In this document: positions 9,146-36,002 of the stretch, piece by piece
Layout: the number at the start of each line of letters is the position of its first letter
Position numbering within the stretch: position 1 is the first letter of the stretch
Made by a program: the position numbers and the translations under genes
The notes under the pieces: model-generated
Seen by the model: only the letters and a program-made list of their open reading frames with translations
Told to the model about the DNA's origin: nothing
Database searches by the model: none
From: Phycisphaerae bacterium
GTDB taxonomy: Bacteria > Planctomycetota > Phycisphaerae > UBA1845 > Fen-1342
Reading direction: 5' to 3'
Assembly (NCBI GenBank): GCA_963675745.2
Contig: CAXXWX010000011.1
Coordinates: 1-44,718 of the forward strand
Length of the DNA stretch: 44,718 nucleotides

Positions 9146-10921
9146 TTAGGGCGCGAAGGACTTCATTGCCGCCACGATCTCCGGCCCCTTGATTTCCTTG
9201 TTGCTCGAGCCCTCCCTGCGGTACGCCGCTTCGCCAACGAACGACAGCGCCGCTTGTTTCGGTATCCGGATGCGTACTACAGTAAGGCCGCCGGTAGTCA
9301 CCGGCTCCGTGTTAGCCAGTATGTCACCCTTCAGGGGCTCACTCAATCCGCAATTCTGAAATATGCTGACGATCCGCTGGACGTACTGCTCAAGCGATAT
9401 GTTTTGGATCGCCGCTTCTCGTTCGAGACCTACGATGTACCGGTCGCCGACCGCCTTAGCAGTGACTCCGTCGAGCGTTTCGATACGCTTCGCATCATCG
9501 TCCTTGTCAGCAACTCCTATGTAAATGAACCCATCAGCTTCCGGCCCAATGTTCGCGATGGCACAGACGGTTTGCACGAGCTTCAGCGGAAGCTCCGCGT
9601 CTTGATCCCTCGCCTCGTCTAGGCGGAGCAAGCCCTGTTTGAGCTCATAGCGGGGCGCCTCGATGCGCGACCTCCGAATGGCATTCTCCAGGTCAAGAAC
9701 GAGTGAGGGGCCATGGCCCAACGCTGGGGGCTCCTTCTTCACGAAATACCTTGCTATAAGCCCCTTCGTTAGATCAATATTCTTGGTACGGTTCTCCGTC
9801 GTTTCGTAATGGGCTCCCTTTGTGAGCTTCGTATCAAGTCCGTCAAGCGCCTTCAGGATCGCCCTGGCATCGTCCGGAGTCTCCTGCTGTCGCACGACCA
9901 AGTCAAAAAACGCCATGAAGATCGCGTAAAAGGGAGCCTTGATTGGATATGCCGTTCCCGGTCGTACTGTTTTTCGTAGGTAGTTGCGATCCGGTGAGAC
10001 CGCCTCTATGACCTCGCGTAGCACAGAAAACGTCGCTTTGATCTCATATGCAAGGCGATCCTCACCATAGGACACAAGGCACTGCTCCAAACGCTTGCCG
10101 TCGTCGGAGTCGGAGTCGTATAGAATGTCGAGGAGCTCCTTGCTCATGGCGAGTGGCGCCTCAAGCAGGACAGACGCGGCGATATCCGCAAGTGTCTGCT
10201 CGTCCTCGCTTTCCTTGACCTGCTTTACAGAGAGGATTCCCTGTTTGCACCATGGCGTATCTTCTGCCGTGATCCCATATCCGTGCGGCTCCTTGGCAGA
10301 TTCGACACTGATTTCTGGCATGTCGGGTAGAGGTACTATGTCCTTCGACACGTCACCGCGAATCTCGCAGGCTAGCGAGCGAATTAGTGAACTGAATCGC
10401 GTCGTAACGCCAGCCTGTCGCTGCTCCTGTGCGCTAAGTTGGCGGCCGTTGGCGTTGATCCGCCCAAAGACCTCAGTAACAGCCGTGGAATCGGAAGTGG
10501 GGTAGACGGTGATTGCAAGTTGATAGTCAAGGACGGACGATCATTCACGCTGTGATAGGAATGGACCATCCGTCTGAGCCGTGAAAACGCCCTTCTCTGC
10601 AAGCTGGCGTGCCCTGGCAAATTCCCGAACGTCGAAGTATTTGTCGTCGATAGCGAACCCGTTCTCAATGAAGCCGAATACGGCATTGAAGCGCTGAATG
10701 CCGTCTATTATTTCATAGCTCTTCGAACCGCCGGCGTTTGGTCGCTCTGCGAGTAAGATCAGAGGAATGGGAAAGCCCCGAAGTATGCTATCGATGAGGC
10801 GCTGTTTCTCCTCAATCGACCACACGAGCTTACGTTGATAGCGTCTGTTGACCAGAAGGCGCCCGTCGCGATATTCGCCGTATAGCGTCTGTACGCTCTT
10901 GCCCTGCGGTACCACGGACAT
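9146..10921 (-). pseudogene. DUF262 (GmrSD-like) plus C-terminal Schlafen/AlbA_2 protein, interrupted by in-frame TGA at 10543-10541
   Basis: GAGGAG RBS and ATG 10921. DUF262 motifs VNRRYQRKLVW, IDSILRGFPIP, IIDGIQR; after the TGA the same frame gives VFGRINANGRQLS. C-terminal ELKQG...CAIAN...GFIYIGVAD is AlbA_2-like. Confidence 0.8.
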
Positions 10922-11142: not shown

Positions 11143-12846
11143 CTATGGTCTCACCGCCCGCACGCAATCAATCACCGTCCCGTCCACCCATTTGATCGCG
11201 GCGATGATTTGGTCGCTTAGCTTTGGCTTGGCCGGCGGGCCGCCGCACATTTTGTCTACTTCCGCTTTGATCTCTTCGATCGGGCGGATGGGCAGGCCGC
11301 TACCTTTGGTGGCGTCGAGCAGATCCTGGCGGCGGGGGTTGATGGCTATGCCGCGTTCGCAGACGACCACGTCTATAAGCTCGCCGGGGCCGACCAGTGT
11401 GGTCACCTCATCGACAATCACCGGGATGCGGTCGCGGACGGCCGGGATCGGCAAAATCACGCAACGGCCGTGCAGGCAGTTCTGCCAGCCGCCGATGCCG
11501 TGCAGCAGTTGACCGTCGGAGTGGGTCACGACATTGGCGTTGAAGTTGACGTCGACTTCGGTAGCGCCAAGCACAACCGCGTCGAGAAAGGTCGCGAAAC
11601 AGCCTTTGCCGTGCCAGTTGTAGCTGGTGAAGGGGCTGGTGTTTTGATGGGCGGCGTTCTCGCGCATGCTGCGCACGCCGTCGAGGTCGAACGTCTGCCC
11701 GTCGAGGATGTAATCGGTAAGGCCCTCTTCGAGCATCTCGACCAGATACTTGGTGCTGCCGCCGCGGACGAAACGCGCCTTGACGCCGGCGTCTTTCATC
11801 ATCTCCTTGAGATAGATCGCGAAAGCGAGCGACGTACCGCCGGCGCCGGCCTGGAACGAAAACCCGTCGCGCATGATGCCCGCGTCACGAACAAACTTCG
11901 CGGCGAGCTCGGCGATCAACATGCGGTCCGGGCTGCGCGTGAGCTGCGTCGTACCACTGACGATCTGGGCCGGCTCGCCGATTTTCTCCAGCACGACCAC
12001 CTGATCGACGTTGTTGCCCTGAAGCTGCCACGGGATGCACGGGAACGGCACAAGATTGTCCGTCACGGCGATGACGTGGTCGGCATAGAGCGAGTCAACC
12101 AGTCCAAACCCGAGCAGGCCGCACGCCGACGGCCCGGTGACGGCGTTCGCGTTGCCGAATGGATCGCACGTGGGGCAGGCCAGCACCGCAATGTCGATGT
12201 GGATCTCGCCGTCCTGCACGGCCTGCCAGCGCCCGCCGTGCGAACGCAATACACCCATGCCGCGCATCTTGCCCGTCGAGCAGTAATTGCCGATCGGTCC
12301 GTTCATCGAGCCTTCGACATGGTGAAGAACGCCCGAGTCGAGGTGCTCGATCAGCGGCTCGTGGCAGGGAAAGCATGCGCTGGGAAACCAGATCAGATCC
12401 TTGACGCCGAGTTCGGCGGCGGCCTGAAACAGCGGCACGGCGACGCGATCGCCGTTGCGAAAGTGATGGTGCGAGCTGATGCGCATGCCGTCGCGAATGC
12501 CGGCGTTCTTCAGCGCCACCTTCAGGGCTTCAACGGGAGAGTCGCAGCGTTTGGCACGGCCGGGAATCGGCGCTGTGCCACTGCTCTCGAGCGGTGCTTC
12601 CTGCGCACCGGCGGATTCGCACTGACCGGGAGCAGTGGCACACGTTGGCGCCCCATCGCGCATCGGCTGATACGACACAACCTTGTTCCCGTCTCGTGGA
12701 TAGTCGTTGCACGACCGGACGCGCGGGGCGGCCTTGTTGCCGGTCGGGGTAAACTTGCCGACGCCTTGAAAGGGAACCTGCTCCTGACCGTTGACAACGC
12801 TCGGGACCATGCGTCCGGCGGCGTTCTTGACGAGTTTGGTTGCCAT
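11143..12846 (-). CDS. citF: Citrate lyase alpha chain / citrate CoA-transferase, with about 48-aa REP-containing insertion
   Basis: GIRDGMRISSHHHFRNGD, LRSHGGR, GPSACG, FSFQAGAGG, ATEVDVNFNANV, ERGIAINP, DGTVID. Confidence 0.93.
   Translation of the reverse strand: MATKLVKNAAGRMVPSVVNGQEQVPFQGVGKFTPTGNKAAPRVRSCNDYPRDGNKVVSYQPMRDGAPTCATAPGQCESAGAQEAPLESSGTAPIPGRAKRCDSPVEALKVALKNAGIRDGMRISSHHHFRNGDRVAVPLFQAAAELGVKDLIWFPSACFPCHEPLIEHLDSGVLHHVEGSMNGPIGNYCSTGKMRGMGVLRSHGGRWQAVQDGEIHIDIAVLACPTCDPFGNANAVTGPSACGLLGFGLVDSLYADHVIAVTDNLVPFPCIPWQLQGNNVDQVVVLEKIGEPAQIVSGTTQLTRSPDRMLIAELAAKFVRDAGIMRDGFSFQAGAGGTSLAFAIYLKEMMKDAGVKARFVRGGSTKYLVEMLEEGLTDYILDGQTFDLDGVRSMRENAAHQNTSPFTSYNWHGKGCFATFLDAVVLGATEVDVNFNANVVTHSDGQLLHGIGGWQNCLHGRCVILPIPAVRDRIPVIVDEVTTLVGPGELIDVVVCERGIAINPRRQDLLDATKGSGLPIRPIEEIKAEVDKMCGGPPAKPKLSDQIIAAIKWVDGTVIDCVRAVRP
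12574..12644. repeat. Degenerate REP doublet inside citF
   Basis: TGTGCCACTGCTCTCGAGCGGTGC (12574-12597) and inverted GCACTGACCGGGAGCAGTGGCACACG (12619-12644); same family as 8616/8832/9056. Confidence 0.85.
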
Positions 12847-15932: not shown

Positions 15933-16808
15933 ATGTCAGGCCACCGCAATTGCCAGTGGTTGACCGCTCGGCTCCGCCGTGCCGAGGGCGGCCGGCATGC
16001 GTTTACGCTGATCGAGTTGCTGGTTGTCGTCGCGATAATCGCGCTGCTGATCTCGATCCTGTTGCCCGCGTTGCAGAATGTCCGTGAACATGCGACGCGC
16101 GTGAAATGTGCGACGAATCTGCGGCAGCACGGCGTGGCATGGACGCTGTATCTCAACGAGAGTGACGATCAGTTTCTGACACCGCCCTATACTCGGCTTA
16201 GCAACGGCAACTGGGTGGTGAATCCGCAACTCGTCTACCAATATGGCGGAAAGATAGTCACGGAGTACTGGGAAGAAATCGGCGGACGCAGAATCGGTGC
16301 GCGGCCACTGAACTTCTACTTCGGCCTCGATCCGTACGGCGTCAAAGTCGCCGAGATCTTCCATTGCCCGGGAGACAACGGCACAAAGGGCACCTGGGCC
16401 TTTGAGACGTTCCCCGATCTACATTCGGTGTACGATTACCAGGGGAATTCATATCCGCTAAACGGCTGGCTCGCCGGGATGTTCTCCAACTTCACCGGCG
16501 ACGCCGCTTATCTGGCGGATGTGTATCCGGATATATTCGCCGGGCGCAGGACGGCGTTACGTTTGGCCGAGATCGAGGTTCCCTCATCAAGCTATATCGT
16601 CAGCGCCGACCGCCAGTGGACATTTGCCAACCGTGAGAGCACGAATTACTCCGCATTATGGCACGGGGATGATCCGCGGCGCGTGAATACTCTGTTCCTC
16701 GATGGGAGCGTCGAGTTCGTGCGTTACGAGATCAACGTCGACCAGACATCGCGCTACAGCTACCGCACCAAGTGGGAACCGCCGCCTCCGCCCGAAGAGG
16801 GTGGCTGA
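15933..16808 (+). CDS. Prepilin-type N-terminal cleavage/methylation protein (planctomycete DUF1559-like)
   Basis: [39 protein letters not shown]...NTLFLDGSV. Confidence 0.9.
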
Positions 16809-17537
16809 CCGTTCGAATCTACGCGTTGGCCCTGATCCGCTTCCGCGCCGTTGGGCGTTGATCCACGCCTGGTGATGTGAAAGATGCGGGCTTTGAGCGT
16901 GCGCTTATCAATCGCGTCCGCTCGCGGGATCGGCTTGCACGTTATCGGCGTCGTCAGACAGTCCAGCGTTGCGTCACGAACCGCATCGACGAAACTGTCG
17001 GCACCACGCCGATTCATGTCGCTGAAATAGCCGCTGCCTCCGGGTGACAGACACGTGGCCAGCAGTGCGGCGATCGCGGGTTGCGCCGCTCTGGTGTAAG
17101 CGCAGTCCGCCGCGACGATCGTCGGGAAGTGGTCAGCGGGGGGATCGCGCCAATCCAGCAGCTTGACCTCATCCAGCCGTACGTCATTCAGCAGCGCCGA
17201 CGCCTGAATGAACGCCAGCGCATCTTCGTCGTAATCGCTGATGACGACGCGGTGGCCAAACAGTGCGAGGGCAAGGCCGGTGATGCCCAGACCAGCGCCA
17301 ATCTCCAACACCGGATCGATGATGCGCCGCGGCGGGGCCAGCAGGTAATCGGCCAGCGCTATCGGCGACCGGCCACGGCTGGGCCCAGTAGGGCATGTAT
17401 GCATCATCACGACGAGACTCGCGCAGGCGATCATTGGGACGCATCCCGAGCGGACTGGCCGGCCCGAGAACGCGCAGCGTGCGGCCGGCGATCGTGAATC
17501 GGTATTCGTGTGCGGCATGTCCGGCGATAGTCGACAT
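16760..17537 (-). CDS. SAM-dependent methyltransferase (Methyltransf_16/METTL21-like), frameshifted near 17363-17372
   Basis: One frame gives MSTIAG...MPYWAQPWP; a second gives IALADYL...[12 protein letters not shown]...SDYD...LDW...AADCAY. A single indel joins them. Confidence 0.75.
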
Positions 17538-17617
17538 GCGCCTGTCATAGCGGCGGCCAACGGGGATTGTCCAGAGGCCGACCGGCACATCGCGGTCAGC
17601 GCAGATTCCCTGCATCC

Positions 17618-17715
17618 GGGTGGCTGCAGGCGTCTCGCCTGCGTGGTCCCCAGGCGCATGGTCTCCTCACAGGCGAGACGCCTGTGCCACCCTTGGTTGC
17701 GCCACCCTTGGTTGC
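17618..17715. repeat. REP doublet (CAGGCGTCTCGCCTG core) plus 15-bp tandem duplication
   Basis: 17618-17642 and inverted 17668-17692; GCCACCCTTGGTTGC twice at 17686-17715. Confidence 0.8.
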
Positions 17716-17716
17716 G

Positions 17717-19726
17717 CTAACGCTTGGGCTCTGCGTACATCGCCTCGATATACGGGCGATAGGTCGGCCCGCAGTTGATCGTGCAGAACGGGTAGATGCC
17801 GTCGGCGGAGCTGTAGAGGATCACACAGCGGCGGATGCGCTCGGTATCGAAGTTGTAGCGGTCCATGAAGTGCATGCCCGCGGCCAGCAGCGTGCGGTAG
17901 TTCTTCTCGCCGGCCCTGCCGCGGCCCTTGCCCTTGTGCGTCATACCCTGGAGGGCGCGCAGAAACGTGAACGGGCCGATGCGCCGGTCACGCTCGGTCC
18001 AGCGATAGCTGCGCAGGAACGTCCAGACGATTTCGAGCTTGTCTTTCCAGTTGGCCAGCTTGTCGGGCCGCCGGGCCTCGATCTTCGCCGCCAGCTCGTT
18101 GAAGCCGCGGAAGAGCTTCATAGTGTCGAACAGTTTCGGGATCGGGATCGCCTGATGATCGGGGGTGACGAAGAAATAGGTGCCGAGCGAGCAGTCGCTA
18201 TGGCAGCTCACGCGCACCTTGGGCTTGCCGTCGAGTGTCTGCATGATGCGCGAGAGCGGCACGACATGGTTCAGCGGGAAGAAGTCGCGCTTGAGACTGG
18301 CCCCGCTGACCTTGGCGATATCATGGGCCATGTCACCCAGCGTATAGCGCTTGGCCTCGAGCTCCTCGTGGTCGATGCGGCCGCTGAAAGACACCGGCTG
18401 ATACGCGATGCCGGAGATGACGTCGGCGTTTTCGCAGGCGAATCGGAAAATGGGCCCAACCTGTTCCTGGCTGACGCCCTTCATCACCGTCGGCACCAGG
18501 CAGATTTTCAGGCCGACCTTGCGGCAGTTTTCGATGACTTGCAGTTTCTTCTCGATCAGCAGTTGTCCGCGCAGTTGGAGATAGGCGGCGTCGTCCACGC
18601 CGTCGAATTGAAGGTAAAGCGTGTGTAACCCGGCCTCGGCGGCCTGCTCTGCAAATTCCAGGTTGGACAATCGCAGGCCGTTGGTCGCGATCTGGACATG
18701 GGTGAAACCCATGTCGTTGGCCGCGCGGCAGAGGTCGAGAAAGCGCGGGTGGATTGTGGGCTCGCCGCCGGTGAACTGGACGGCCGTACTGGCGACCGGT
18801 TTCATCTGGCGCAGACTGCGCAGCATCTCGACGACCATCTCGTACGATGGCTCGGCAACATAGCCGGCCTGGTTCGCCGACGCAAAGCAGACCGGGCAGT
18901 TCATGTTGCAGCGATTGGTCAGATCGATCTGCGCCAGGCAGGCGGTGCTGTGGTGTTGGTTGCAGATGCCGCAGTCCGTCGGACAGGCGTGGCCGGCGGT
19001 GACGCGCGGATTGCTCACCCCGGCCTCGTCCTCCCAGCCGGTGGTCGTCATCCGCAGATACAGATTCACATCCGAATTGATCTTGTCACGAAAGTAGCCG
19101 TGTTCCGGACAGGTCTTCTCGATACAGACGGCGTTGTCTTTGACGAAATAGCGGCCCAGCAGCAGACAACTGCACTCCGGGCAGAGTGTTTCGACGGTGC
19201 GCGGCAGGCCGGTGAGGATCGGGCGCACCACAAAACCGCTGTAGGTCGTCTTTGGCTGGCGTTTCAAACCGTCGCGTGTCGGGATGTTCTTGACGAAGAG
19301 CACATCGAGGTGTTCTTCACGATACTGTGCGCCGTCCGGGCCGTCATACTCGAGGAATATCTTGTCTTCGTCGCGGTCGTACAGCAGGCGACCGGGCACG
19401 AGGCCGGCATACTCCTCGGAATACCATTGCCCTTCCCACGGCAAGCCGGCGATCCCCTTCTGCACCGGCGCGTATTTGCGCAGTCCGGCCTTGTACTGCT
19501 CCAGGGGCGTGCGCGCGTCGGCGGTGTCGACCGCCCGGCGCGAGATCTCATCAAGCGGTCGGTGCAAACAGCCGGAGCGCTGCACGTTGTCGCCACGCGG
19601 CGGGGTGTTGTCGGCCGGCCTCGCTTCATGCGCCAACGCGCCGAGCGTGCCATCCTGAGGTGGAACGTCGCCGATCCCGGCAGGTGGCGTGCTGGTGTCA
19701 GGGGGCGGCGTGTCAGCGCGAGTCAT
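17717..19726 (-). CDS. tes: Radical SAM tetraether lipid synthase (Tes / GDGT-MAS, MJ0619 family) homologue with N-terminal extension
   Basis: Rubredoxin-like LCPEC...KTCPEHG, auxiliary CPTDCGIC, radical-SAM TNRCNMNCPVCFA, QFTGGEPT, ATNG, YLQFDG, QPVSFSGR, HSDC, MHFMDRYNFD..R..RC.I.Y, PFC. GAGGA RBS before ATG 19726. Confidence 0.9.
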   Translation of the reverse strand: MTRADTPPPDTSTPPAGIGDVPPQDGTLGALAHEARPADNTPPRGDNVQRSGCLHRPLDEISRRAVDTADARTPLEQYKAGLRKYAPVQKGIAGLPWEGQWYSEEYAGLVPGRLLYDRDEDKIFLEYDGPDGAQYREEHLDVLFVKNIPTRDGLKRQPKTTYSGFVVRPILTGLPRTVETLCPECSCLLLGRYFVKDNAVCIEKTCPEHGYFRDKINSDVNLYLRMTTTGWEDEAGVSNPRVTAGHACPTDCGICNQHHSTACLAQIDLTNRCNMNCPVCFASANQAGYVAEPSYEMVVEMLRSLRQMKPVASTAVQFTGGEPTIHPRFLDLCRAANDMGFTHVQIATNGLRLSNLEFAEQAAEAGLHTLYLQFDGVDDAAYLQLRGQLLIEKKLQVIENCRKVGLKICLVPTVMKGVSQEQVGPIFRFACENADVISGIAYQPVSFSGRIDHEELEAKRYTLGDMAHDIAKVSGASLKRDFFPLNHVVPLSRIMQTLDGKPKVRVSCHSDCSLGTYFFVTPDHQAIPIPKLFDTMKLFRGFNELAAKIEARRPDKLANWKDKLEIVWTFLRSYRWTERDRRIGPFTFLRALQGMTHKGKGRGRAGEKNYRTLLAAGMHFMDRYNFDTERIRRCVILYSSADGIYPFCTINCGPTYRPYIEAMYAEPKR

Positions 19727-19851
19727 TTCAAGATCCTCTGGTCTCAATAACGGCGGGCCACCCATGGCAGCGCGGCTGGTACGGATGGGTGACCGTTGCG
19801 TGTTCTGGTCGGGCAGACAGGCCCGACGTTACAGGTTGCGGACGCCCGCTG

Positions 19852-21147
19852 CTACTTGAAGTAGTCCGGGTATACCCGCTGGTGTCTCTTGCGTTTCTGA
19901 TACGCCCGCGTGAGATCCAGGAAAATCTCGAGGTCGCGGTCTATGTGCGTGTTGATCTTATCAAAATACAGCGATCGAATCGGGATCCCGTCATGATCGG
20001 CGCTGACCGCCGGATAAACCGCCTCGGCGGTAATGCCATTCATGCACGTGAAAGGACTGATGTCGATGATTCCATCGGCGCCCTTGTCGTGCAGATAGAT
20101 CGCCTTGCCGACACTGAGTGTCATCTCGCCCAACGCCCCGCTCGCGGGCAGGTAGGGCTCGGCCCGCTTGAGCACCTCGGTGACGTCGTGGGGTTCCTCG
20201 TACCCCTTGAAATCAGCATGGGACGGAGCGGTTATCACGTGTTCGTAGTGGTGTTGAAACCGGTTCTTCAGCTTCAGCTTGAGCAGGTGGAGGTTGAGGT
20301 AGCCGCGCGTGCGGATCTGGTCGAATTCGCGCCACCAGTTGGTATACCACACCCACTCGGTCAGGTCCGAAAGCCAGCACTCGCCCCCCAGGTTCTCGAT
20401 CCGTCGTGCGGTTTCCTCGTTGGCGAATGTGTTCATACGGCAATAGATCTCGCCAACCAGGCCGATGAGTGGCCGGCCCTTTTCGTACTGAGCCGGCACT
20501 GATGAATAGCGCTCGCGCATCCGCCGCACGCAGTCGGCCAGTGCGGTGAGGCGCTGCTTGGTCGGCAGGTCGGGTGTTGCCAGAACGGTGCCAAACTGCT
20601 CGAGCGAGTGGTGAAAGACCTCGTCGGAATCACCGGCGGTGGCTTCGTACGGCCGGGTCTTGAGCAGATAGCGCGTGGTGAGGTCGGCACAAACGATGGC
20701 CATCCAGACAGTCTTCCTGAGCTGGGCGGCATGGGCGCCGATGCCGTCGTAACCATCACTCGTGGTGGGCGCGACAACGATGGCGTCGCCATAGCCCAGC
20801 TCATCGAGTTTCTGTTTGAGATATGGTGCATATTGCCCGAAGCGGCACGGGCCGTTGGCCATCGGCATGAAAAAGGCGTTTTTCCGCGGGTCAAACCCGG
20901 GCTGCTGGCAAACGCGCAGGAAATCACCGAGTGTGATCTTGTGCGGCAAGCACTCTTCACCGCTGCTGTGCAATCCGCCGATCTCGAGCGTTTCTTCGTC
21001 GGACGGCGGAGTGGTCACGCCGTTGACACCGACCGCCTGAAACGCCGACGCTGTCAGCCGGGCAGCGGCGAAGGACATCGGGGGGATGTAGAGCGTTCGT
21101 CCGGCAAGACTTGGTCGGCCGGTTTGCTCTTGCACGTCCGCCACCAT
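19852..21147 (-). CDS. plsR: PlsR-like Fe-S reductase (2-hydroxyacyl-CoA dehydratase-related), partner of the CoA-activase
   Basis: RTLYIPPM, GEECLP, GPCRFGQY, LLKTRPYE, VGEIYCR, PFTCMNG. Overlaps the 3' end of the activase gene. Confidence 0.7.
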   Translation of the reverse strand: MVADVQEQTGRPSLAGRTLYIPPMSFAAARLTASAFQAVGVNGVTTPPSDEETLEIGGLHSSGEECLPHKITLGDFLRVCQQPGFDPRKNAFFMPMANGPCRFGQYAPYLKQKLDELGYGDAIVVAPTTSDGYDGIGAHAAQLRKTVWMAIVCADLTTRYLLKTRPYEATAGDSDEVFHHSLEQFGTVLATPDLPTKQRLTALADCVRRMRERYSSVPAQYEKGRPLIGLVGEIYCRMNTFANEETARRIENLGGECWLSDLTEWVWYTNWWREFDQIRTRGYLNLHLLKLKLKNRFQHHYEHVITAPSHADFKGYEEPHDVTEVLKRAEPYLPASGALGEMTLSVGKAIYLHDKGADGIIDISPFTCMNGITAEAVYPAVSADHDGIPIRSLYFDKINTHIDRDLEIFLDLTRAYQKRKRHQRVYPDYFK

Positions 21148-24100
21148 CGCAGAATCCCTTTGCTATCGAGGTAGGCCTCACAGCGCGTCAACATGCCGGC
21201 GTCGTTCGAGTGCCCGTCAAACTGGAGCGTCAAGAACGGCTTGCCGGAGTGTCGGCGGATGAAGCTCTTGAGGAACGAGTCAGGTCCACACTTGAAGTTG
21301 GTCACGTAAATGATGTCGAGGTTCGAACGCGCACCGACCAGCCGGGCGGCTGCCAGAATACGTCGGCCGTAAGCCCAGTACATGTTCTCGTCAACGTCGG
21401 TTATGTTGATGTCGTCGAGCGGCAGGGCGTCAATCGGGATCACGTTCACGCCGTACAGTTCGCGCAGCTTGCGCGCCACCGACAGGCTGACACCACCGTC
21501 GTGCAGGTTGTACGGCCGACCGATCAGCACCATGCCGTGCTCGCCGGTGGCGTCGAGTTGGGCCAGCGCCGCCGCCCCCGCCTGCTCGTACGCGGCGCGG
21601 AAACGTTGATGAGCGGCAAGCCCGGCCTCGACCGCATCGCGGGCGCGGACCGTGCGAACGCCGAGGCTGTTCGCATGATCAACCAGCGTCGCGCGCACGG
21701 CGTCGTACCCGTCGTCAAAGCGCAATGAGGGGCAGAGGATGCGCCCCTGCCAGGATCTGAACGCCGGCGCCTGGCGCACGACGAACGGCAGGGTCATGCC
21801 CCACGGGCAGTAGAAGCTGTTTTGGGTCTCGTCATCGCGCTTGGCCGAGATCAGGTTGGGCACGAAGATGTGATCAACGCCGGCTTCAACCAGCTCCGCC
21901 ACGTGGCCGTGCGCGACGATGATCGGGAAGCACGGTTCGGCGACGGCGCTGTCCAAGCCCCTCTGCACCGTGGCACGGTTGGTTTCGCCCGATACGATGA
22001 CCCGGAATCCGCACGCGCGGAAGAAAGTGCGCCAGAGCGGCAGCAAATCCCACGAGTACATCGCCATGGGAATCCCGATGGTCCGCACGGCGTCCGGTGG
22101 GTCACCGCTGGCGTCATCCGCGTGCAGCAACTCGTCGCGCAGCTTGCCGAGATCCTGAATGACCGCTTGTTTGCCACTCTTCTGCTGCTTGCGGAATCGC
22201 TCGGAGCACTTGTCGCCCCAGTAGGTCTTGGAGTTCTCGACACTGAATTCCTGGATTGCACAGTGGTTGCCACACCCCGCGCACGTGAATTCGCGCAGGT
22301 GGTAATCCACCTGGTCGATGTCGTAGCCGCGAAAACGCGTGCCGCTGTGCGTCGTGCTCACTCGTTCTTTGGCAAGCAGGGCCGCACCGATCGCTCCAAG
22401 GACGGCGTTGTGCGGCGGAACGATAATCTCCTTGCCGGTGATAATGCTGAAGGCGGCGGCAACGGCCTTGTTGTACGCCGTACCCCCCTGGAAGAAAACG
22501 CAATCACCAATGTGCCGGCCACGGACGACGCGGTTGATGTAGTTGTAGCCGATCGAGTATGCCAGCCCGGCGATGATATCCTCACGCCGCGCGCCGCGCT
22601 GCATGCACGTGCCGACGTCACGCTCCATGAATACCGTGCAGCGCTCACCGAGCTTGATCGGTGCCCGTGACTTGAGCGCCTCGGCGGCGAATTCATCTTC
22701 GATTGCCACGCCCAGCTCGGCGGCGCGCTCTTCGAGAAAGCTCCCCGTCCCCGCCGCGCACGCCTCGTTCATCGTAAAATCGACCACAACCGTGCTGGTC
22801 GCATCGGCGCCTTCCGGTTCGAGGCTGATGAATTTGCTGTCCTGCCCGCCGATTTCGAAGATCGTGTCGGGTCGCCGGCCGAGCAGCTTGTCGCCGATGA
22901 ACGTGGCGCCGGTCTTGTGTGCGGTGATTTCGTCGTTGATGCTGTCGGCGCCGACGAGCTCACCGATCAACTCGCGACCGCTGCCGGTGGTCCCGACGCC
23001 GCGGATATTCACCCCCCAGCCCACCGCTTCCTCCAGCTCTTTCAGAATGCGGCCCACCACCTGGATCGGACGCCCCTCGGTGCGCGTGAAAATGCTGTGA
23101 ATGACGTCGCCGGCGTCGTCGATGAGTGACAGCTTGGTTCCAACCGAGCCGATATCCAGGCCCAGGTAAGCATCGAGCGGCGTCTTTTCGGGAAGGAGCT
23201 CGTAGGGCCGCTCGTGGTGATGCAGCACCTGCACGCGCTCGAGCGAGAGCGGCTGCGAGCGGGGGAACTCGTATGATTCTGAATCCGCGTGATGCGCCAG
23301 TTGTTCGAGTCGCTGGGCGAGATCATTCGCATCGCTATCGTCGTCGGCCATAGCCGCGGCGCCGATCGCACCCACCGAAGCGGCGCCCGCCGGGACAAAC
23401 AGCTCCTGGTCAGAAAGCTCGAAAACCTCGCGCAGCCCCGTTACGACAGCGCTGTTCTTTGACACGCCGCCGACGAACGCCACCGGCGGGACAACTTCGT
23501 GCCCTTTGACGACGGCGGATTTGAAATTGGTGGCGACGGCGTCACACAGGCCGTGCAGAACTTCGCCCGGGCCGTAGCCCTTCTGCTGCGCGTGGATCAT
23601 GTCGCTCTTGGCGAACACACTACAGCGGCCCGCGATCTGCGCCGCACGCTCTGTCTCGGCCACGATCGCGCCGATATCCTCGACCGCAAATTGCAGGCGC
23701 GCCGCCTGTTGGTCGAGGAATGCCCCGGTGCCGGCGGCACAATCGCCGTTGGCGCTGTAGTCCAGAATGCCAAGTTGGCCGCTGCCCGGATCAGGATCAA
23801 GGCGCAGATAGCGGCTGGACTCGCCGCCCATCTCAAACACGGTTCGCACGCGCGGTTGAATCAGATCGATACCGCGCGCACAGGCCTGAAACTCGTTACA
23901 GCTCTGGGCCGCGAGTTTCGTGGCGACCAGCACGCCCCCCGAACCGGTGCAAGCCACACTCGTGATGTCACCGGCGGGCACGACATGCAGCAACTCGTCG
24001 AGCAACGCGCGTACCGCATCGAGCGGCCGCCCGCGCGTGCGACGATATGTTGTTACCAGCACGGCGACGGGGGACTCGTCCGGTGTGGGTATGCATCGCA

Positions 24101-24215
24101 ACAACTCGCCGGCCCCCGGCCTGGCGAGCAGGCCGTCGACATCGCCGCGCTTCAGCACCAGCGCGATCTTCAGGCCGACCACACCGACGTCAATCCCCAG
24201 CTTCATGGATATCAC
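21054..24215 (-). CDS. plsA: PlsA/Ger-like CoA-substrate-specific activase (two BadF/BadG/BcrA/BcrD ATPase domains plus DUF2229)
   Basis: GIDVG / CAAGTGAFL / RCSVFAKSD; GLDIGS / EIGGQDSK / NEACAAGTGSFL / RCTVF; CAGCGNHC; EPCFP, GRPYN, FKCGPDSF, TRCEAYL. Start is GTG 24215 or ATG 24206. Confidence 0.75.
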   Translation of the reverse strand: MISMKLGIDVGVVGLKIALVLKRGDVDGLLARPGAGELLRCIPTPDESPVAVLVTTYRRTRGRPLDAVRALLDELLHVVPAGDITSVACTGSGGVLVATKLAAQSCNEFQACARGIDLIQPRVRTVFEMGGESSRYLRLDPDPGSGQLGILDYSANGDCAAGTGAFLDQQAARLQFAVEDIGAIVAETERAAQIAGRCSVFAKSDMIHAQQKGYGPGEVLHGLCDAVATNFKSAVVKGHEVVPPVAFVGGVSKNSAVVTGLREVFELSDQELFVPAGAASVGAIGAAAMADDDSDANDLAQRLEQLAHHADSESYEFPRSQPLSLERVQVLHHHERPYELLPEKTPLDAYLGLDIGSVGTKLSLIDDAGDVIHSIFTRTEGRPIQVVGRILKELEEAVGWGVNIRGVGTTGSGRELIGELVGADSINDEITAHKTGATFIGDKLLGRRPDTIFEIGGQDSKFISLEPEGADATSTVVVDFTMNEACAAGTGSFLEERAAELGVAIEDEFAAEALKSRAPIKLGERCTVFMERDVGTCMQRGARREDIIAGLAYSIGYNYINRVVRGRHIGDCVFFQGGTAYNKAVAAAFSIITGKEIIVPPHNAVLGAIGAALLAKERVSTTHSGTRFRGYDIDQVDYHLREFTCAGCGNHCAIQEFSVENSKTYWGDKCSERFRKQQKSGKQAVIQDLGKLRDELLHADDASGDPPDAVRTIGIPMAMYSWDLLPLWRTFFRACGFRVIVSGETNRATVQRGLDSAVAEPCFPIIVAHGHVAELVEAGVDHIFVPNLISAKRDDETQNSFYCPWGMTLPFVVRQAPAFRSWQGRILCPSLRFDDGYDAVRATLVDHANSLGVRTVRARDAVEAGLAAHQRFRAAYEQAGAAALAQLDATGEHGMVLIGRPYNLHDGGVSLSVARKLRELYGVNVIPIDALPLDDINITDVDENMYWAYGRRILAAARLVGARSNLDIIYVTNFKCGPDSFLKSFIRRHSGKPFLTLQFDGHSNDAGMLTRCEAYLDSKGILRWWRTCKSKPADQVLPDERSTSPRCPSPLPG

Positions 24216-26457: not shown

Positions 26458-26880
26458 TCAGTCAGACATTCCGGGTACGTCAGTAACAAAAGACTCGATG
26501 GTCAACGCCTGTCCGTTTGGCCCGCTGGTAATGATCCGCAGGCGCTTGATCCCCGAGCCCGGCTCGGCGGTGATGAAGTCCTTCGAACTCACTTCGCGGA
26601 GTTCTGTACGCCGCTCATAGCCGGTCAGCCCATCAGGGGCCTTTTCGTCGGGATACGCTTTACCGATGATGGCGTCATAACCGCGCGTGGGATCGGCGTG
26701 GGCGGCGAAAACCTCCCAGAGGCGCTCCGATGCCAGGTGCGTCAGGTTCTGCTGGACATAGGCCATCTCCTGTTGACGCACCGCGCCGCCGATCTGGATC
26801 AACAAAGGCGGGATCGCCAGACCCAGGATGACGATCGTCACGACCACTTCGATCAGCGATAGCCCGCGGCGACCGGTCAT
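26458..26880 (-). CDS. Minor (pseudo)pilin, GspI/PilV/MshD-like
   Basis: RRG|LSLIEVVVTIVILGLAI class III signal. Confidence 0.8.
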   Translation of the reverse strand: MTGRRGLSLIEVVVTIVILGLAIPPLLIQIGGAVRQQEMAYVQQNLTHLASERLWEVFAAHADPTRGYDAIIGKAYPDEKAPDGLTGYERRTELREVSSKDFITAEPGSGIKRLRIITSGPNGQALTIESFVTDVPGMSD

Positions 26881-27617
26881 GGCCAGCTCACCTCGCAGAT
26901 TCCTGATCCGGCGCTGATCGTGAGGATCGCGCCCGAACTGAAAGTGACTGTCTGATCCGCGCCCAGAACGTCTCCGCCCAGGTCAATCGGCATACCCGCC
27001 GCACTGAACCCCACGGCGCCGCCCTTTGCACTTGGAACCTTGCTGATGCCGAGCCCGGGAGCCAGCGCCTGCGCGTCGATCAGCCACGGCTCGTTGGTCA
27101 GGGGGTGATTAAGTGTGCTGGCGTCAATCGGGCCGCTGCTCGGCGTGGTCTCCTGCTGCAGCTCGTATGTGTTCTTGGCGGCATCGAAGGTACATAGTGT
27201 TCTCCGCCCGGAGAGCACCGCCAGGTGACGTGCATAGAGCACATCCGATCGCACGCGTCGCACCGCCGCCGCCGAGCGCCACTCGCCGGCGCCGCGCAAG
27301 CTGCCGACGGCAATGCCGGCCAGGATCATCGACAGCGTCATGACCGCGACCATTTCCATCAAAGTGAACGCACACCTGGCGGTCCCGCGCGCAAATCTCT
27401 CAGGTCGCCGGCCCGCAATGTAGCGCCGGCGCGCAATGTAGCGGCCTGCGCCTCGCAGGCCGTCGAACACCGGAAACGCCACCCCTGCGCGACGGCCTGC
27501 GAGGCGCAGGCCGCTACTGAGGCGCAGGCCGCTAGTGGGGTGCTGGCCGCTACTGAGGCGCAGGCCGCCGTTGAGGCGATGATCGTTACCGGGTTCACAC
27601 ACGAGGCTCGCGGGCAT
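26877..27617 (-). CDS. Minor (pseudo)pilin, GspH/FimT-like, with REP-expanded leader
   Basis: A|FTLMEMVAVMTLSMILAGIAV, VRSDVLYARHLA, VGFSAAGMP, TISAGSG. The ATG overlaps the upstream stop (TGATG). Confidence 0.8.
   Translation of the reverse strand: MPASLVCEPGNDHRLNGGLRLSSGQHPTSGLRLSSGLRLAGRRAGVAFPVFDGLRGAGRYIARRRYIAGRRPERFARGTARCAFTLMEMVAVMTLSMILAGIAVGSLRGAGEWRSAAAVRRVRSDVLYARHLAVLSGRRTLCTFDAAKNTYELQQETTPSSGPIDASTLNHPLTNEPWLIDAQALAPGLGISKVPSAKGGAVGFSAAGMPIDLGGDVLGADQTVTFSSGAILTISAGSGICEVSWP
27415..27570. repeat. REP doublet with partial copies, inside the pilin leader
   Basis: GTAGCGGCCTGCGCCTCGCAGGCCGTCG at 27438-27465, perfect inverted copy at 27490-27517, partial copies on both sides. 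Confidence 0.9.
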
Positions 27618-28492
27618 CAGCTTGCGGCTCCCATTGCCGCCGGCGCCGCTCGCACCGCGCCGGTTACGGTTATCTCAGTTGGCGGCGGCAACAGTCGATC
27701 GATCGCGCTGCGCACCGCGGCCGCATCGACCCGTTTCGCAAGCTCCAGATAGGCCACGTGCATGGAGAGGTGTGCCAGACGGTTGACCAGGCGGGGCACG
27801 CCGGCGGACCATTCCGCAATGACCTGTGCCGCTTCGTCTGTGAAGATCGGTTCGGACTGATTTGCGGCCGGCGTTTCAGCCGCCGTCGCCAGTCTGTGGT
27901 TGAGGTAATCTGGAATCGCGTTCGCCGTCAGCGGGCCGAGCGCTACGGTCGCAAACAGACGTTGCGACAGCCACTCGGGCCACCGCTGCGTCTCAGGCTG
28001 CGCGGCCCCCGCGAGCAAGACGCACGTTCGACATTGCTCGATATCCAGGTTGAGCAGCCAGCGCAGCGCTTCGAGCGTTTCACAGTCAGGATCGGCCGGC
28101 CACTCGTCGAGCATCACCACCAGCGCGCCAGTCTCGCCATCAACGTCGGCCGCGGCGCGCAGAATTGCGTCCATGGCCGCCGGTGTATCGGGCGCGAGCG
28201 TGTGCGTGAGGTGGTACGCGACACTTTGCAGCGGATTGACGCGCGCCAGAGCCACTTCGGGAACGAAGGAAACCAGATACTGCTCGCGCGGCAGCCGGCG
28301 GCGCAGGGCGCGCAGGATCAGCGTCTTGCCGCAACCCGCCTGTCCGTAAAGGGCCACCGGCTCTCCGCCTTCGCAGGCGGCATAGCTGACCGTGGCCAGC
28401 GCCTGCTCGACCGGCGCCGTGGCAAACAGGAACCGCGAATCCGGGCGGGCTTCGAACGGCGCGTGTTTCAGGCCCCAGTGACTCTGATACAT
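27617..28492 (-). CDS. ExeA/GspA/MshM-like AAA ATPase
   Basis: MYQSHWGLKHAPF, GQAGCGKT, VMLDE, YLNHRL, SAGVPRLVNRLA. GAGGAG RBS. Confidence 0.9.
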   Translation of the reverse strand: MYQSHWGLKHAPFEARPDSRFLFATAPVEQALATVSYAACEGGEPVALYGQAGCGKTLILRALRRRLPREQYLVSFVPEVALARVNPLQSVAYHLTHTLAPDTPAAMDAILRAAADVDGETGALVVMLDEWPADPDCETLEALRWLLNLDIEQCRTCVLLAGAAQPETQRWPEWLSQRLFATVALGPLTANAIPDYLNHRLATAAETPAANQSEPIFTDEAAQVIAEWSAGVPRLVNRLAHLSMHVAYLELAKRVDAAAVRSAIDRLLPPPTEITVTGAVRAAPAAMGAAS

Positions 28493-28506
28493 GATCGACC
28501 GCTCCT

Positions 28507-29727
28507 CTATTGCTTGAGCATCAGCGTGTTGGATTCCCACATCGGCAGGAATACGGCCAGCGCCACGCCCATGACGACGCTGCTGACCAGCAGTGTCAGC
28601 AGAGGTTCCAAGGCGGTCATCACGCGTTGGATGCGCACACGGATGACTTCCTCGTAGTGCTCCGCCGCCGCGCCCAGCGTCTCATCCAGTCTTCCGGTTT
28701 CCTCACCGACCGCGATCATCTGCTCCACCAACTGTGGCAGCGCCTTACCTTCGCTTACGGATATGGTCACGCTGCTGCCGGTGGCGACATCGCGGCGGAT
28801 CTTCCCGGTCAGGTCGCGCACGGGCCCCGGCATCAACATCTGCTCGATAACCTGAAGCGTCTCAATCAACGGCAGGCCGGACCGCTCCAGCAGGGCCAGC
28901 ATGCGCGAGAACTGGGTCACGGTTGAGAGGTAGTAGATTTCGCCCATCATCGGCAGGCGATTGACCGCGCGCCCGACCGCGCGCCGAAACGTCGGATTGG
29001 GACTAAGCAGCCAGATCGCGGCGATAACCGCCGCCAGTCCGCCGAGCAATTTCCAGGGGTGCCCGGTCAGCAGGTCGCTGGCGCCAATCAACACGCGCGT
29101 CGGCAGCGGCAGCGCGGCCCCGGATGCCTCGAATATCGACTGAAACTGCGGCACGACGCACGTGAGCATCACCACGCAGGCGCCGATCAGCGTCAGCACC
29201 ACGATGCCGGGGTACAGGAGCGCGCTGACGATTTCACGGCGCAGGCCGGCGCGACGTTCATAATACTTGATCAGCTCATCGAGCGATTCTGTGTGTACAC
29301 CGGCGGCCTCGCCGGCCCGAATCGTCCCCACGTAGAACGAGTCGAAGGTGCGCGGGTGGGCCGCGAGTGCCTCGGAAAGCGTCGTCCCGCGCTGAATGTC
29401 AGCGCCGATGCGGTCGAGCAACACGCCGTAGTTACCCTTTGCCCGCTGGCGCAGCAGGGCCAGCGTTGTCAGGATCGAAACGCCGCTGGCCAACATTACC
29501 TTCAACTGTCGCGAGAATTCGAGCAGCTCAGAGAGACGCAGGCGAATATTGGTGGTTCCGGCCGTGGCCCCGAACTTGTCCGTCGCGGATTTGACCAGCC
29601 GTGTCTTGAGCGGCAGCAGCGCGCGCTGTTCCAGCGCGCGGATGGCCTCGGCTTCCGAGGTGGCTTCGAGCAGGCCGGTCCGAACGTTTCCGCCGGCGTC
29701 GGCCGCCTGATAGGTGAAGCTCGGCAT
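28507..29727 (-). CDS. T2SS/T4P platform protein (GspF/PilC/MshG family)
   Basis: MPSFTYQA, FSRQL, GEAAG, ALLYP, VVPQF, MIAVGEETG, LEP, FLPMW. Confidence 0.93.
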   Translation of the reverse strand: MPSFTYQAADAGGNVRTGLLEATSEAEAIRALEQRALLPLKTRLVKSATDKFGATAGTTNIRLRLSELLEFSRQLKVMLASGVSILTTLALLRQRAKGNYGVLLDRIGADIQRGTTLSEALAAHPRTFDSFYVGTIRAGEAAGVHTESLDELIKYYERRAGLRREIVSALLYPGIVVLTLIGACVVMLTCVVPQFQSIFEASGAALPLPTRVLIGASDLLTGHPWKLLGGLAAVIAAIWLLSPNPTFRRAVGRAVNRLPMMGEIYYLSTVTQFSRMLALLERSGLPLIETLQVIEQMLMPGPVRDLTGKIRRDVATGSSVTISVSEGKALPQLVEQMIAVGEETGRLDETLGAAAEHYEEVIRVRIQRVMTALEPLLTLLVSSVVMGVALAVFLPMWESNTLMLKQ

Positions 29728-29730
29728 GGT

Positions 29731-31626
29731 CTAGTCCTCCACGCCGCAACACTGCTCGCGCGGTTGCAGCCAGCGCCTCAGCAGATGCTCGTAAGCGCCG
29801 ACGCTGAAGTCGGCGCGTCCGATCTCGGGCACTTCCGCCTGTCCGCGCGCAAGTTCCGCGGTGCGATACTGGCTGGGAAGCGGTTCAAGATCGCCGACGT
29901 CAAGCTGTCCGGCGACGCGCATGAGTTCCTCGATGGTCGTCAATCCCTGGCCGACCTTGTCGATTCCGTCCTCCTGAAGCAGGCGCATGCCGTCTTTGCG
30001 GGCCAGCGCTACCAGTTCGCGCTCGTTGGCACCCGCCGGTATCGCGCGGCGCATCTCATCGGTGATCACCAACAGTTCGTAGATTCCGGCTCGGCCACTG
30101 TATCCGGTGTTTGCACAGCGTTTGCAGCCCCCGGCTTGCATCAGCTCGCAGTCCTCCAGCAACGTGGCGGCTGACTGTGGCAATGCGGCCAGCGCCCGGG
30201 CGCGTGATTCGACCGGCCGCGCGCAATGCGGGCACAGACGCCGGCAGAGCCGTTGGGCCAGGATGCCCACCAGGGCCGACGAGACCAGGAAGTTGGCGAT
30301 GCCCATGTCGAGCAGGCGCACCGGGGCGGCGGCAGCGCTGTTGGTGTGCAGCGTGCTGAGCAGCAGGTGGCCGGTCAACGCCGCCTGGAGCGCGATTTCC
30401 GCCGTCTCCAGGTCACGGATCTCGCCCAGCATGATCACATCCGGGTCTTGACGCAGGATCGAGCGCAAGCCGCTCTGGAAGGTCAACCCGGCCTTGGGGG
30501 TCACGCCCACCTGTCGAATCTGCGGCAGGCGGATTTCGACCGGCTCTTCGAGGGTCACAATGCTCTGGCGGACCCGATCGATGCGTGTCAGCGCGGAATA
30601 AAGCGTGGTTGTCTTGCCGCTGCCGGTCGGGCCGGTGACCAGCAGCATGCCGTGCGGCAGGTGGATGAGCCGGTCGAAGGTGTTCTGGGTCCGCTCATCC
30701 ATGCCCAGCTCTTCGAGCGTGAGCAGGTGGCCACCGCTGTGGAGCAGACGCAGCACCACCGCCTCGCCGTCGGCCGACGGCAGCGTGGAGACGCGCACGT
30801 CCAGCTCTTTGCCGTCGATGGCCAGCTTGAAGTGGCCGTCCTGGGGCTTGCGGGTCTCGGCGATGTCCATGTGCGCGATCACCTTGATGCGCGAGACAAC
30901 CGCGGGCAGGAGCTCTTTGGGAGGCGCGGGCACTTCGCGCAACACGCCGTCGATGCGGAAGCGGATGCGCATGGCGTGTTCTTCGCCGTCGATGTGTACG
31001 TCGCTGGCCTTGCTGCCGGCGGCTTGGTCGAGCAGGACATTGACGAGCTTGACGGCCGGGGCGTCCGTGACGTCTTTGAGGATTTCCTCCCAGGCGATGG
31101 TGGCGGCACTCTTGGTGGCTTGGTGATCGGTAAAGCCGCCAAACGCCCATTCGATCAGGTGATTCAGGTCACGGTGGTTCGTGAGAACCTGGTCGACCTC
31201 ATAGCCGGTGTGCAGGCGGATCTGGTCCAGCAACGGCAGATCCAGCGGCCAGGTGACGGCCAGCGTGATGATGCGGTCGATCACGAAGAGCGGAAACAGC
31301 TCATGCGTGCGTATCCACTCTTCCGGTACCAGCAGGCGATTGTCGAGGTTGATGCGGAAGTCGCGCGGCTCGACGAATGCCAGTTCAAAACACTCGGCCT
31401 GGATGGCCGCCAGGTCGCGCTGCGTGACGCAGCCATGTTCGACGAGCCATTCGCCGGCTTGGCGCGGCTGGCGCCGACTTTCATTCCATGCGGACTCAAG
31501 GACCTCGGTTGTGACCAGCCCGGCTTGTTCGAGGGCCCCGATCCACGCCGGTTTGACGGCGGTCGAACCCTGAGAGGTTGCTGACACCGCCTTGCCGCCA
31601 GCCGTGGATGTGGTGCTGTTGCTCAT
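29731..31626 (-). CDS. T2SS/T4P assembly ATPase (GspE/PilB/MshE family)
   Basis: ASDVH, RFRIDGVL, PQDG, GPTGSGKTT, LRQDPDVIMLGEIRD, TGHLLLSTLHTN, CPHC/CKRC. Confidence 0.95.
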   Translation of the reverse strand: MSNSTTSTAGGKAVSATSQGSTAVKPAWIGALEQAGLVTTEVLESAWNESRRQPRQAGEWLVEHGCVTQRDLAAIQAECFELAFVEPRDFRINLDNRLLVPEEWIRTHELFPLFVIDRIITLAVTWPLDLPLLDQIRLHTGYEVDQVLTNHRDLNHLIEWAFGGFTDHQATKSAATIAWEEILKDVTDAPAVKLVNVLLDQAAGSKASDVHIDGEEHAMRIRFRIDGVLREVPAPPKELLPAVVSRIKVIAHMDIAETRKPQDGHFKLAIDGKELDVRVSTLPSADGEAVVLRLLHSGGHLLTLEELGMDERTQNTFDRLIHLPHGMLLVTGPTGSGKTTTLYSALTRIDRVRQSIVTLEEPVEIRLPQIRQVGVTPKAGLTFQSGLRSILRQDPDVIMLGEIRDLETAEIALQAALTGHLLLSTLHTNSAAAAPVRLLDMGIANFLVSSALVGILAQRLCRRLCPHCARPVESRARALAALPQSAATLLEDCELMQAGGCKRCANTGYSGRAGIYELLVITDEMRRAIPAGANERELVALARKDGMRLLQEDGIDKVGQGLTTIEELMRVAGQLDVGDLEPLPSQYRTAELARGQAEVPEIGRADFSVGAYEHLLRRWLQPREQCCGVED

Positions 31627-31997
31627 CCTTCCGCCTCCCGCGTGGCCGCCTGTTCAAGCACCTCGGAGAATTCCGAGTTGGCATCATCAAAACGCAGGCC
31701 CACCCCGTAACGCGGTTCGCGGTCCACCATCTGGACGTTCATCACACGCGCGGACAGGCTGCCGGCCGGTAATGTGCCCCCCGGCGGTATCTCCAACTCC
31801 ACCTGGGCGGCACGCGGCAAGTAAACCGGTACGACCACGAATGCCCCCCCGCGGCTCGCGTTCTTCAGGCGACCGGGAACCGATGGGCCACCGGTGGGCG
31901 CAACCTGCTTTCGGCTGCTCTCACGGATCACAAGTTGAACGCGAACGTCGATCGCACGGCGTTCGTATTGTCGGCGATGAGTAACGTGTTGAGCCAT
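31623..31997 (-). CDS. PilZ domain protein
   Basis: RRQYERR (RxxxR), NASRGG (NxSxxG), GVGLRF. Confidence 0.85.
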   Translation of the reverse strand: MAQHVTHRRQYERRAIDVRVQLVIRESSRKQVAPTGGPSVPGRLKNASRGGAFVVVPVYLPRAAQVELEIPPGGTLPAGSLSARVMNVQMVDREPRYGVGLRFDDANSEFSEVLEQAATREAEG

Positions 31998-32239
31998 CGG
32001 GCACCGGGCGTAGCTGGACCATGGGCCGAGACCAGGTCGGCTCCGGAGGATTCATCGAACGAATCGGACGTGGTGATTAGCAAGCCCACCGCAGTTATCA
32101 GACCAATAGGCGAAGCCCCGGATCATGCGTTGCCGGCGACGTCACATCGGACCTGCAAAAACGAAAGCGATCGCGTGCCCCACGTGCGGCGGTGGGTCAC
32201 GCGATCGCGGCAAGGAGTCCGGCGGACGCCGGTCAGCGG

Positions 32240-32638: not shown

Positions 32639-32820
32639 GACTGCTCCTCGGTTGGGGGTCCTGCTCATGGTCCCGGTCACGACGACCGGTGCATCAGCTA
32701 TTCACGCCCCTCGGCCGGATGTGACAGACGGCGCCCAAAAAACAACCACGGCCGCCAAGGCGCGGGTGCCCCATGGCTTGCCACGGGGGACTGACCACAC
32801 TGCGAGTTGGAAAGCTATAT

Positions 32821-33918: not shown

Positions 33919-33928
33919 GGTCTGGTAG

Positions 33929-35677: not shown

Positions 35678-36002
35678 CCGCGTATTACCTCCTAGAAACG
35701 CCGGCGCGCGAACGCCGACATGAGCCGCCGGCGCCGTACGCAAGGGGACGCCATTATGTTTTCGGGCACTCGGTGGTCATCGCTTTATCGGGTCATCAGG
35801 CTGGTCGCCGAGCGTGGGCAGTCAGCGTCGCGGCACGACGGCGCGGGAATTGCGCGACCTCGTGCCCAAGCCCCCAAACGCAGGACAGCGTGCCGCGGCG
35901 TATGAATCGCGCGGCGTAGCCGGTACAATGCGCCGCCTGTTGGAAGCGGGCCGGAACAGCGCCCGCGAACGCACCATGCCACAAACACCAGGAGGACTGC
36001 TC

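Follow-up and report, generated by a model that had tools for sequence, protein, structure and literature searches.

Does a single bacterial operon join the making of ether bonds to the making of membrane-spanning lipids? The question is raised by a stretch of 44,718 nucleotides (nt) from a Phycisphaerae bacterium, hereafter the window, which is contig C11 of a 5.2 Mb genome (G000; 28 contigs, 91% complete). On its minus strand, three co-oriented open reading frames (ORFs) encode a PlsA-like protein (P0001), a PlsR-like protein (P0002) and a tetraether lipid synthase, Tes (P0003). The original prediction for this DNA had placed three adjacent, co-oriented genes here, encoding a double-ATPase plus DUF2229 activase, its reductase partner and a Tes-type protein of the radical S-adenosylmethionine (SAM) class. 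The ORFs lie where it had put them, and domain, profile and fold matches bear out all three identities. Judged from these genes, plsA-plsR-tes is probably a lipid module, predicted to form both ether bonds and membrane-spanning chains.

[quoted passage not shown] The leading hypothesis combines an ester-to-ether reductase with a Tes homologue, and its basis so far is co-occurrence at genome level together with one cultured acidobacterium in which the genes lie apart. A single operon, gained and lost jointly across a planctomycete family and recurring in another phylum and with a second reductase lineage, gives this hypothesis independent guilt-by-association support.

P0003 is the only Tes in the genome. 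It reaches 474.6 bits against NF045702 (tetraether lipid synthase Tes), for which the equivalog cut-off is 450, with residues 192-679 on positions 3-484 of the 486 in the profile; the genome-wide search gave 475.7 bits. Residues 188-677 align to 22-504 of GDGT-MAS from M. jannaschii (PDB 7TOL, E 2.8e-111). The likeness to this enzyme (MJ0619, 7TOL/7TOM) extends over its full length and takes in both CxxxCxxC sets (that of the radical SAM motif and a second one), the CxxC/CxxH pair, the C-terminal cysteines and MHFMD. The Tes/GDGT-MAS motif order had been read from the letters, and every motif named there is present in P0003: C195/C198 with C219/H222, C261-x3-C265-x2-C268, the radical SAM motif C286-x3-C290-x2-C293, C521, C525, C647, C661, MHFMD at 631-635 and Y637. 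None of these motifs varies among 10 planctomycete Tes proteins, and the ligand sets of P0003 align to 7TOL. From these features, P0003 is proposed to be a lipid tail-to-tail C-C coupling enzyme.

P0003 also differs from archaeal Tes in several respects. It has an N-terminal extension of about 190 residues, it falls in a separate planctomycete clade, and its gene adjoins a reductase gene, a neighbour seen at none of 42 archaeal loci. Its substrate is likely to be a fatty-acyl lipid and not an isoprenoid; an archaeal-type isoprenoid substrate is unsupported because PcrB/GGGPS (PF01884) has no match in the genome. Within the extension, a second, zinc-ribbon-like segment (CxxC...CPxCG) is kept in nearly all of the approximately 25 compared planctomycete Tes proteins that cover the segment, while the archaeal enzyme lacks it. 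The ribbon cysteines are lost in the window Tes and in one relative of the same genus (G003), and retained in another (G001). The end branch of the window Tes is longer than that of its sister (0.28 vs 0.12).

The Tes tree was built with FastTree from 98 rows, taken from loci whose best high-scoring segment pair exceeded 420 residues; its root is arbitrary, and one row (L102) represents a paralogue. All 27 planctomycete rows group together (support 100), with a Krumholzibacteria sequence as sister (99). The 18 Acidobacteriota rows form a clade of their own, and a further clade of 43 rows (100) contains 42 archaeal rows and one titled Bacteroides.

The first gene of the operon encodes the putative activase. 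P0001 carries two PF01869 domains (E 1.6e-61) and PF09989, or DUF2229 (E 7e-54), in Pfam, and matches TIGR00241 of NCBIfam at 252.6 bits. Two PF01869 followed by PF09989 is the BBD architecture that serves as a criterion in PMC13159169, where it is reported as conserved in all alkyl-ether producers. P0001 is the sole DUF2229 protein of the genome (187.8 bits). Both of its ATPase domains retain two cysteines that align to the cluster-binding cysteine region of the 2-hydroxyisocaproyl-coenzyme A (CoA) dehydratase activator, and the Cys-rich linker behind them may, from its residues, bind a metal or cluster. By sequence, the closest solved structures are 2-hydroxyacyl-CoA dehydratase (HAD) activators and benzoyl-CoA reductase subunits. 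The closest PlsA-like proteins come from metagenome-assembled genomes (MAGs) of Phycisphaerae and other Planctomycetota, in keeping with the planctomycete origin already proposed for this DNA.

P0002 has no Pfam or NCBIfam family above threshold, with DUF2229 as a sub-threshold match only (21.7 bits vs a cut-off of 29.4), and no sequence relative among solved structures. An AlphaFold model made with 26 homologues (predicted local distance difference test, pLDDT, 85.6; predicted template modelling score, pTM, 0.88) matches catalytic subunits with a Foldseek probability of 1.0 and a template modelling (TM) score of about 0.45. These subunits belong to the double-cubane cluster protein DCCP (6ENO, 7YYL), to (R)-2-hydroxyisocaproyl-CoA dehydratase HadB/C (3O3M) and to benzoyl-CoA reductase BzdNO (8S02). 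Three cysteines, C66, C101 and C368, are invariant across the 26 homologues. Furthermore, a genome of the same order has a fused PlsA-PlsR-type frame (L116; open frame of 1489 residues), and P0002 shares 36% identity with its C-terminal portion.

Grouping of the activase pair with fermentative 2-hydroxyacyl-CoA dehydratase systems had been named in advance as a result that would speak against a lipid function. Those systems, like benzoyl-CoA reductase, have a separate single-domain activase and two PF06050 (or Bcr B/C) subunits, whereas the ATPases of P0001 are fused in tandem to DUF2229. PF06050 has no match in P0002 or elsewhere in the 91%-complete genome, and a role in CoA dehydration is unsupported for this reason. 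With its BBD protein and partner, the pair is not a classical system of that kind.

The plsR gene starts before plsA has ended: its ATG lies within the last conserved plsA codons (...ILRWW), 9 nt 3' of AAGGGA; beyond ILRWW the plsA frame continues as a poorly conserved tail up to its TGA. This overlap layout is identical in all seven orthologous loci compared. The split between plsA and plsR may have originated by frameshift, or the overlap may permit occasional fusion, and a programmed -1 frameshift joining PlsA to PlsR was considered in view of the conserved overlap; other genomes of the order have a fused PlsA-PlsR-type frame. A paralogue of this fused type was found in five genomes of the order (41-43% identity, open frames of 1445-1540 residues) and sits, where Tes is present, on another contig than Tes. 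The gap between plsR and tes is 86 nt. The public gene call of the PlsA-like protein has 1050 residues and starts at an ATG at 24206, three codons downstream of the GTG used here.

We looked for Tes and P0001 in the genome and in 60 relatives, and mapped 30 stretches around the matches by tblastn. The family of the window comprises 37 genomes, including its own, and a PlsA was counted as window-type at an identity of at least 60%. Tes is present in 18 of the 37 genomes and window-type PlsA in 17. All 17 genomes with PlsA also have Tes, and PlsA occurs in none of the 19 Tes-negative genomes, so that in 36 of 37 genomes either both are there or both are missing. In 13 of the 17 PlsA-bearing genomes, plsA-plsR-tes is found on a single contig. 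Two more (G001 and G003) have the genes parted solely by contig ends, at or just past plsR, which gives 15/17 when both are counted. Such adjacency is far above chance placement in a 5-Mb genome. A linkage that failed to hold in relatives had also been named as a refuting outcome; the survey and the synteny mapping found it conserved.

The only family genome with Tes and no window-type PlsA (G026) has another BBD gene, 26% identical and 1401 residues long, directly upstream of tes, and the same arrangement is seen in two other genomes of the order (G053, G047). Elsewhere in the order, G045 keeps plsA-plsR-tes, and two genomes have the genes on separate contigs (G037, G051). ORF clustering over 21 loci reveals that only the three operon genes and their shadow frames recur in more than six.

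Beyond the relatives, a Tes alignment was run against a set holding one genome for each species, and a BBD or PlsR-like gene was sought in the fetched flanks of the best 80 of 587 confirmed loci. In Planctomycetota such a gene was near tes at 2 of 7 loci (1 of the 3 that had 5 kb or more to either side), in Acidobacteriota at 3 of 23 (2 of 14) and in Archaea at 0 of 42 (0 of 31). The acidobacterial Tes-linked PlsA/PlsR are 46-54% identical to the window pair; for the pairs of Bryobacteraceae and of a further Acidobacteriota MAG, the range was 46-51%. Two Bryobacteraceae MAGs have plsA-plsR and tes in divergent orientation, and a third MAG has the order tes-plsA-plsR. A quick IQ-TREE tree, made from 27 BBD proteins, puts the split-type PlsA from both Planctomycetota and Acidobacteriota on one side of a branch with 99% support in the Shimodaira-Hasegawa-like approximate likelihood ratio test (SH-aLRT), apart from the fused same-order paralogue and from the distant Tes-adjacent BBD lineage. 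A reductase is thus found beside tes through two unrelated BBD lineages and in at least three gene orders.

As for the possible mechanism, the fused double ATPase of the PlsA-like protein, by homology the electron activase of the BCR/HAD superfamily, would carry a bridging Fe-S cluster and use ATP to drive an electron of low potential into a catalytic heterodimer, in which the DUF2229 domain of P0001 is paired with the PlsR-like protein. In phospholipids, this heterodimer would reduce glycerol esters to ethers of the alkyl or alk-1-enyl type. Tes would then couple two acyl or alkyl tails at their terminal carbons, giving membrane-spanning lipids of the diabolic-acid or brGDGT-like kind. The substrates, the order of the steps, the ether type and the final product (tetraether, mixed or tetraester) are all our inference from the genes. 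The brGDGT-like tetraether or macrocycle suggested by the original prediction is likewise a pure inference.

Several points weigh against this picture. The relatives are non-independent samples. In two family members (G009, G024) the genes are truly unlinked, and four genomes of the order (G040, G041, G057, G058) have plsA-plsR with no Tes, so coupling is not obligatory. PlsR of C. perfringens has a PF06050 match, whereas P0002 has none (PMC10087280 supplement Fig. S10). In S. usitatus, PlsAR (Acid_0922/0921) lies far from Tes (Acid_5929) by locus tag, according to the same figure. Lastly, a 2026 preprint calls bacterial Tes activity not experimentally validated (10.64898/2026.06.23.733905). 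Taken together with the conserved synteny, which strengthens it, the interpretation as a lipid module is plausible, with a product predicted from the gene content.

A more specific form of this interpretation is that brGDGT synthesis has its missing ester-to-alkyl-ether reductase in the split PlsA/PlsR subfamily that adjoins tes in Planctomycetota and Acidobacteriota, and that the operon alone could turn diester phospholipids into ether-linked spanning lipids. We put this forward tentatively, as a possibility that leans towards the doubtful side. If it is true, Phycisphaerae would be a major unrecognised source of brGDGTs in low-oxygen waters and sediments.

The main rival keeps the same genes and changes the product: PlsA/PlsR would make vinyl ethers (plasmalogens) and Tes would make ester-linked iso-diabolic tetraesters or mixed lipids, with no brGDGT. 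The layout as split PlsA and PlsR is that of the plasmalogen operon of C. perfringens and not of the fused Ger, homology is unable to separate alkyl from alkenyl ether formation (PMC11868695), and Tes alone gives tetraesters in Koribacter (Chen 2025, as cited in PMC13023045). The window-type pair, however, clusters with the Tes-linked pairs of acidobacterial Bryobacteraceae. That family is the one to which, we assume, the brGDGT producer S. usitatus belongs. On this evidence the plasmalogen product is unlikely, and yet to be taken seriously.

An improbable explanation is that the BBD protein and PlsR serve Tes itself, as an ATP-driven donor of low-potential electrons or a repair system for its clusters, and are not a lipid ester reductase. 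Tes has several conserved Cys/His metal or cluster motifs and needs reduction, archaeal tes adjoins a ferredoxin gene (PMC8941075), and tes has BBD neighbours from two unrelated lineages. Against this, the pair is a full catalytic one, DUF2229 together with a PlsR-like fold, which is more than an activase; it also occurs in the four Tes-free genomes given above, and BBD homologues alone make ethers in E. coli (PMC13159169). Hardly credible, finally, is a meaningless adjacency, in which a fermentative 2-hydroxyacyl-CoA dehydratase or aryl-CoA reductase relative has tes as a chance neighbour: the public annotation of the PlsA-like protein as "acyl-CoA dehydratase activase" and the nearest solved structures fit it, but the genome has no PF06050 subunit, the architecture is BBD and not HgdC with HgdAB, and the linkage within the family, the joint presence and absence, and the recurrence in another phylum and with another BBD lineage all stand against it.

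Among the 31 radical SAM matches listed and 29 other frames scanned in the genome, none could be named as a homologue of Mss or Grs. Eight B12-type radical SAM genes fall below every NCBIfam cut-off, on contigs C27, C15, C5, C13, C4 and C1 (L123, L133, L135, L137, L138, L140, L141, L142), and might, as Grs/Gmm-like candidates, serve in the methylation of lipids or in forming rings. Four relatives of the order (G045, G053, G060, G037) have a radical SAM/SPASM gene directly 3' of tes, for which no NCBIfam family scored above its cut-off. The only close homologue of this gene in the window genome (68% identity; G000:C15:484502-485282, L148 6449-7283) is cut by the contig end, and its frame changes near residue 317. 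This copy is a pseudogene or else an error of the assembly. The class I SAM methyltransferase downstream of tes was considered as a lipid methylase and ruled out, since it is Methyltransf_16-like and lies beside tes in none of 20 relatives' loci.

The features of the locus are collected in Table 1.

Table 1. Coordinates of the operon, its domains and the adjoining gene in the window.
Feature	Position	Strand	Description
plsA-like (P0001)	21054-24215	-	1053 aa from GTG; fused double ATPase (activase) + DUF2229
ATPase domain 1	23346-24206	-	P0001 ~residues 4-290; DCAAGTG from residue 158, RCSVFAK from 197; BzdQ/BcrD-type matches residues 64-288
ATPase domain 2	22371-23165	-	P0001 residues 351-615; EACAAGTG from 484, RCTVFME from 525; 4EHT alignment E 5.3e-26
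Cys-rich linker	22206-22283	-	C645-x2-C648-x3-C652...C670; between ATPases and DUF2229
DUF2229 (PF09989) domain	21426-22082	-	P0001 residues 712-930; putative first half of catalytic heterodimer
plsA/plsR overlap	21054-21147	-	94 nt; plsR frame is -1 relative to plsA
plsR-like (P0002)	19852-21147	-	431 aa; predicted Fe-S catalytic partner
tes (P0003)	17717-19765	-	682 aa; radical SAM protein; Tes/GDGT-MAS core residues 192-679 (window 17729-19192)
Accessory N-terminal zinc-ribbon-like segment	19286-19444	-	Tes ~residues 108-160; all four Cys replaced (S116, Y119, G142, G145)
Class I SAM methyltransferase (Methyltransf_16-like)	16760-17659	-	57 nt 3' of tes; neighbour, outside conserved unit

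At 6.5 kb, the operon is a unit suited to expression in its present form. A scan for consensus promoters gave no sigma-70-like site in the window against 2.2 expected, and a scan for terminators gave 3 terminator-like sites against 5.5 expected, with none between the operon genes; both scans are uninformative for this phylum.

In terms of neighbouring genes, a cluster resembling a type II secretion system (T2SS) or type IV pilus lies just upstream of the operon on the minus strand (26458-35743). It contains a secretin, a tetratricopeptide repeat (TPR) protein, the T2SS E ATPase, T2SS F, an AAA protein and a prepilin-type N-methyl protein. Further genes encode a Schlafen AlbA_2-domain protein (9146-10351) and a CitF-like protein, citrate lyase alpha or CoA transferase (11143-12846), the latter shadowed by an opposite-strand ORF of 568 residues with no family match. 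In one relative (G015), a gene for a 797-residue protein with Peptidase_C1 and lectin-like parts stands between plsR and tes (L012 8770-11163). Its Peptidase_C1 and the one beside the SPASM fragment on C15 are only 26% identical, and orthology was ruled out. Three relatives have a ferritin-like gene shortly 3' of tes (L009 14285-14761, L012 4291-4908, L015 13062-13625), which could reflect the iron demand of Fe-S enzymes, or chance.

The idea of the pathway and planctomycete candidates for it are already published, and the gain made here is incremental. The original prediction held that brGDGT producers are poorly known outside Acidobacteria; this is overstated, as published work already proposes Planctomycetota, with their homologues of Tes, Grs, Ger and Mss, as sources of brGDGTs (PMC11868695, PMC13023045). 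Zeng 2022 listed 456 bacterial Tes homologues and suggested a role in brGDGT synthesis (PMC8941075). Among 684 Black Sea Planctomycetota MAGs, Boukhchtaber 2025 reported Tes in 110 and Ger in 53, with Tes and GrsA in Phycisphaerae (PMC11868695), and Planctomycetaceae are named as having PlsA, PlsR and Tes (PMC13023045). We found no statement in print of an adjacency between plsA or ger and tes; subscription journals (e.g. Geochim. Cosmochim. Acta, with Chen 2025) and Fig. S15 in the SI of PMC11214058 lay outside this search.

Clusters of another kind are known from Garcia 2024, where the gms genes of bacteria are placed in clusters with tes or mss, and genomes of Acidobacteria and Planctomycetes with Gms homologues mainly encode Tes (PMC11214058). 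The SPASM gene 3' of tes in the four relatives is a candidate parallel to these clusters, whereas the window operon has no such gene.

Among the characterized reductases, C. perfringens PlsA/PlsR yields vinyl ethers, while the products of Ger upon anaerobic expression in E. coli are 1-alkyl ethers (PMC13159169). Compared by domain architecture, C. perfringens PlsA/PlsR and the Ger of T. maritima and Desulfatibacillum alkenivorans have a BBD part, as found here, and a second catalytic part, to which the predicted counterpart P0002 is linked through PF06050 at fold level only; the split into two genes is shared with C. perfringens. The window pair is linked to tes, a gene that C. perfringens, T. 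maritima and D. alkenivorans are not known to have; for T. maritima, PMC13159169 reports no Tes homologue.

Finally, the closest published proposal is that of Halamka 2022, a brGDGT route with PlsAR, Tes and Grs in Solibacter usitatus (PMC10087280). The PlsAR of this acidobacterium has the same domain pattern as the window pair, a BBD protein with a Pfam-less partner (PMC10087280 supplement Fig. S10). Unlike in S. usitatus, the reductase and tes of the window stand in one operon, and they belong to another phylum.

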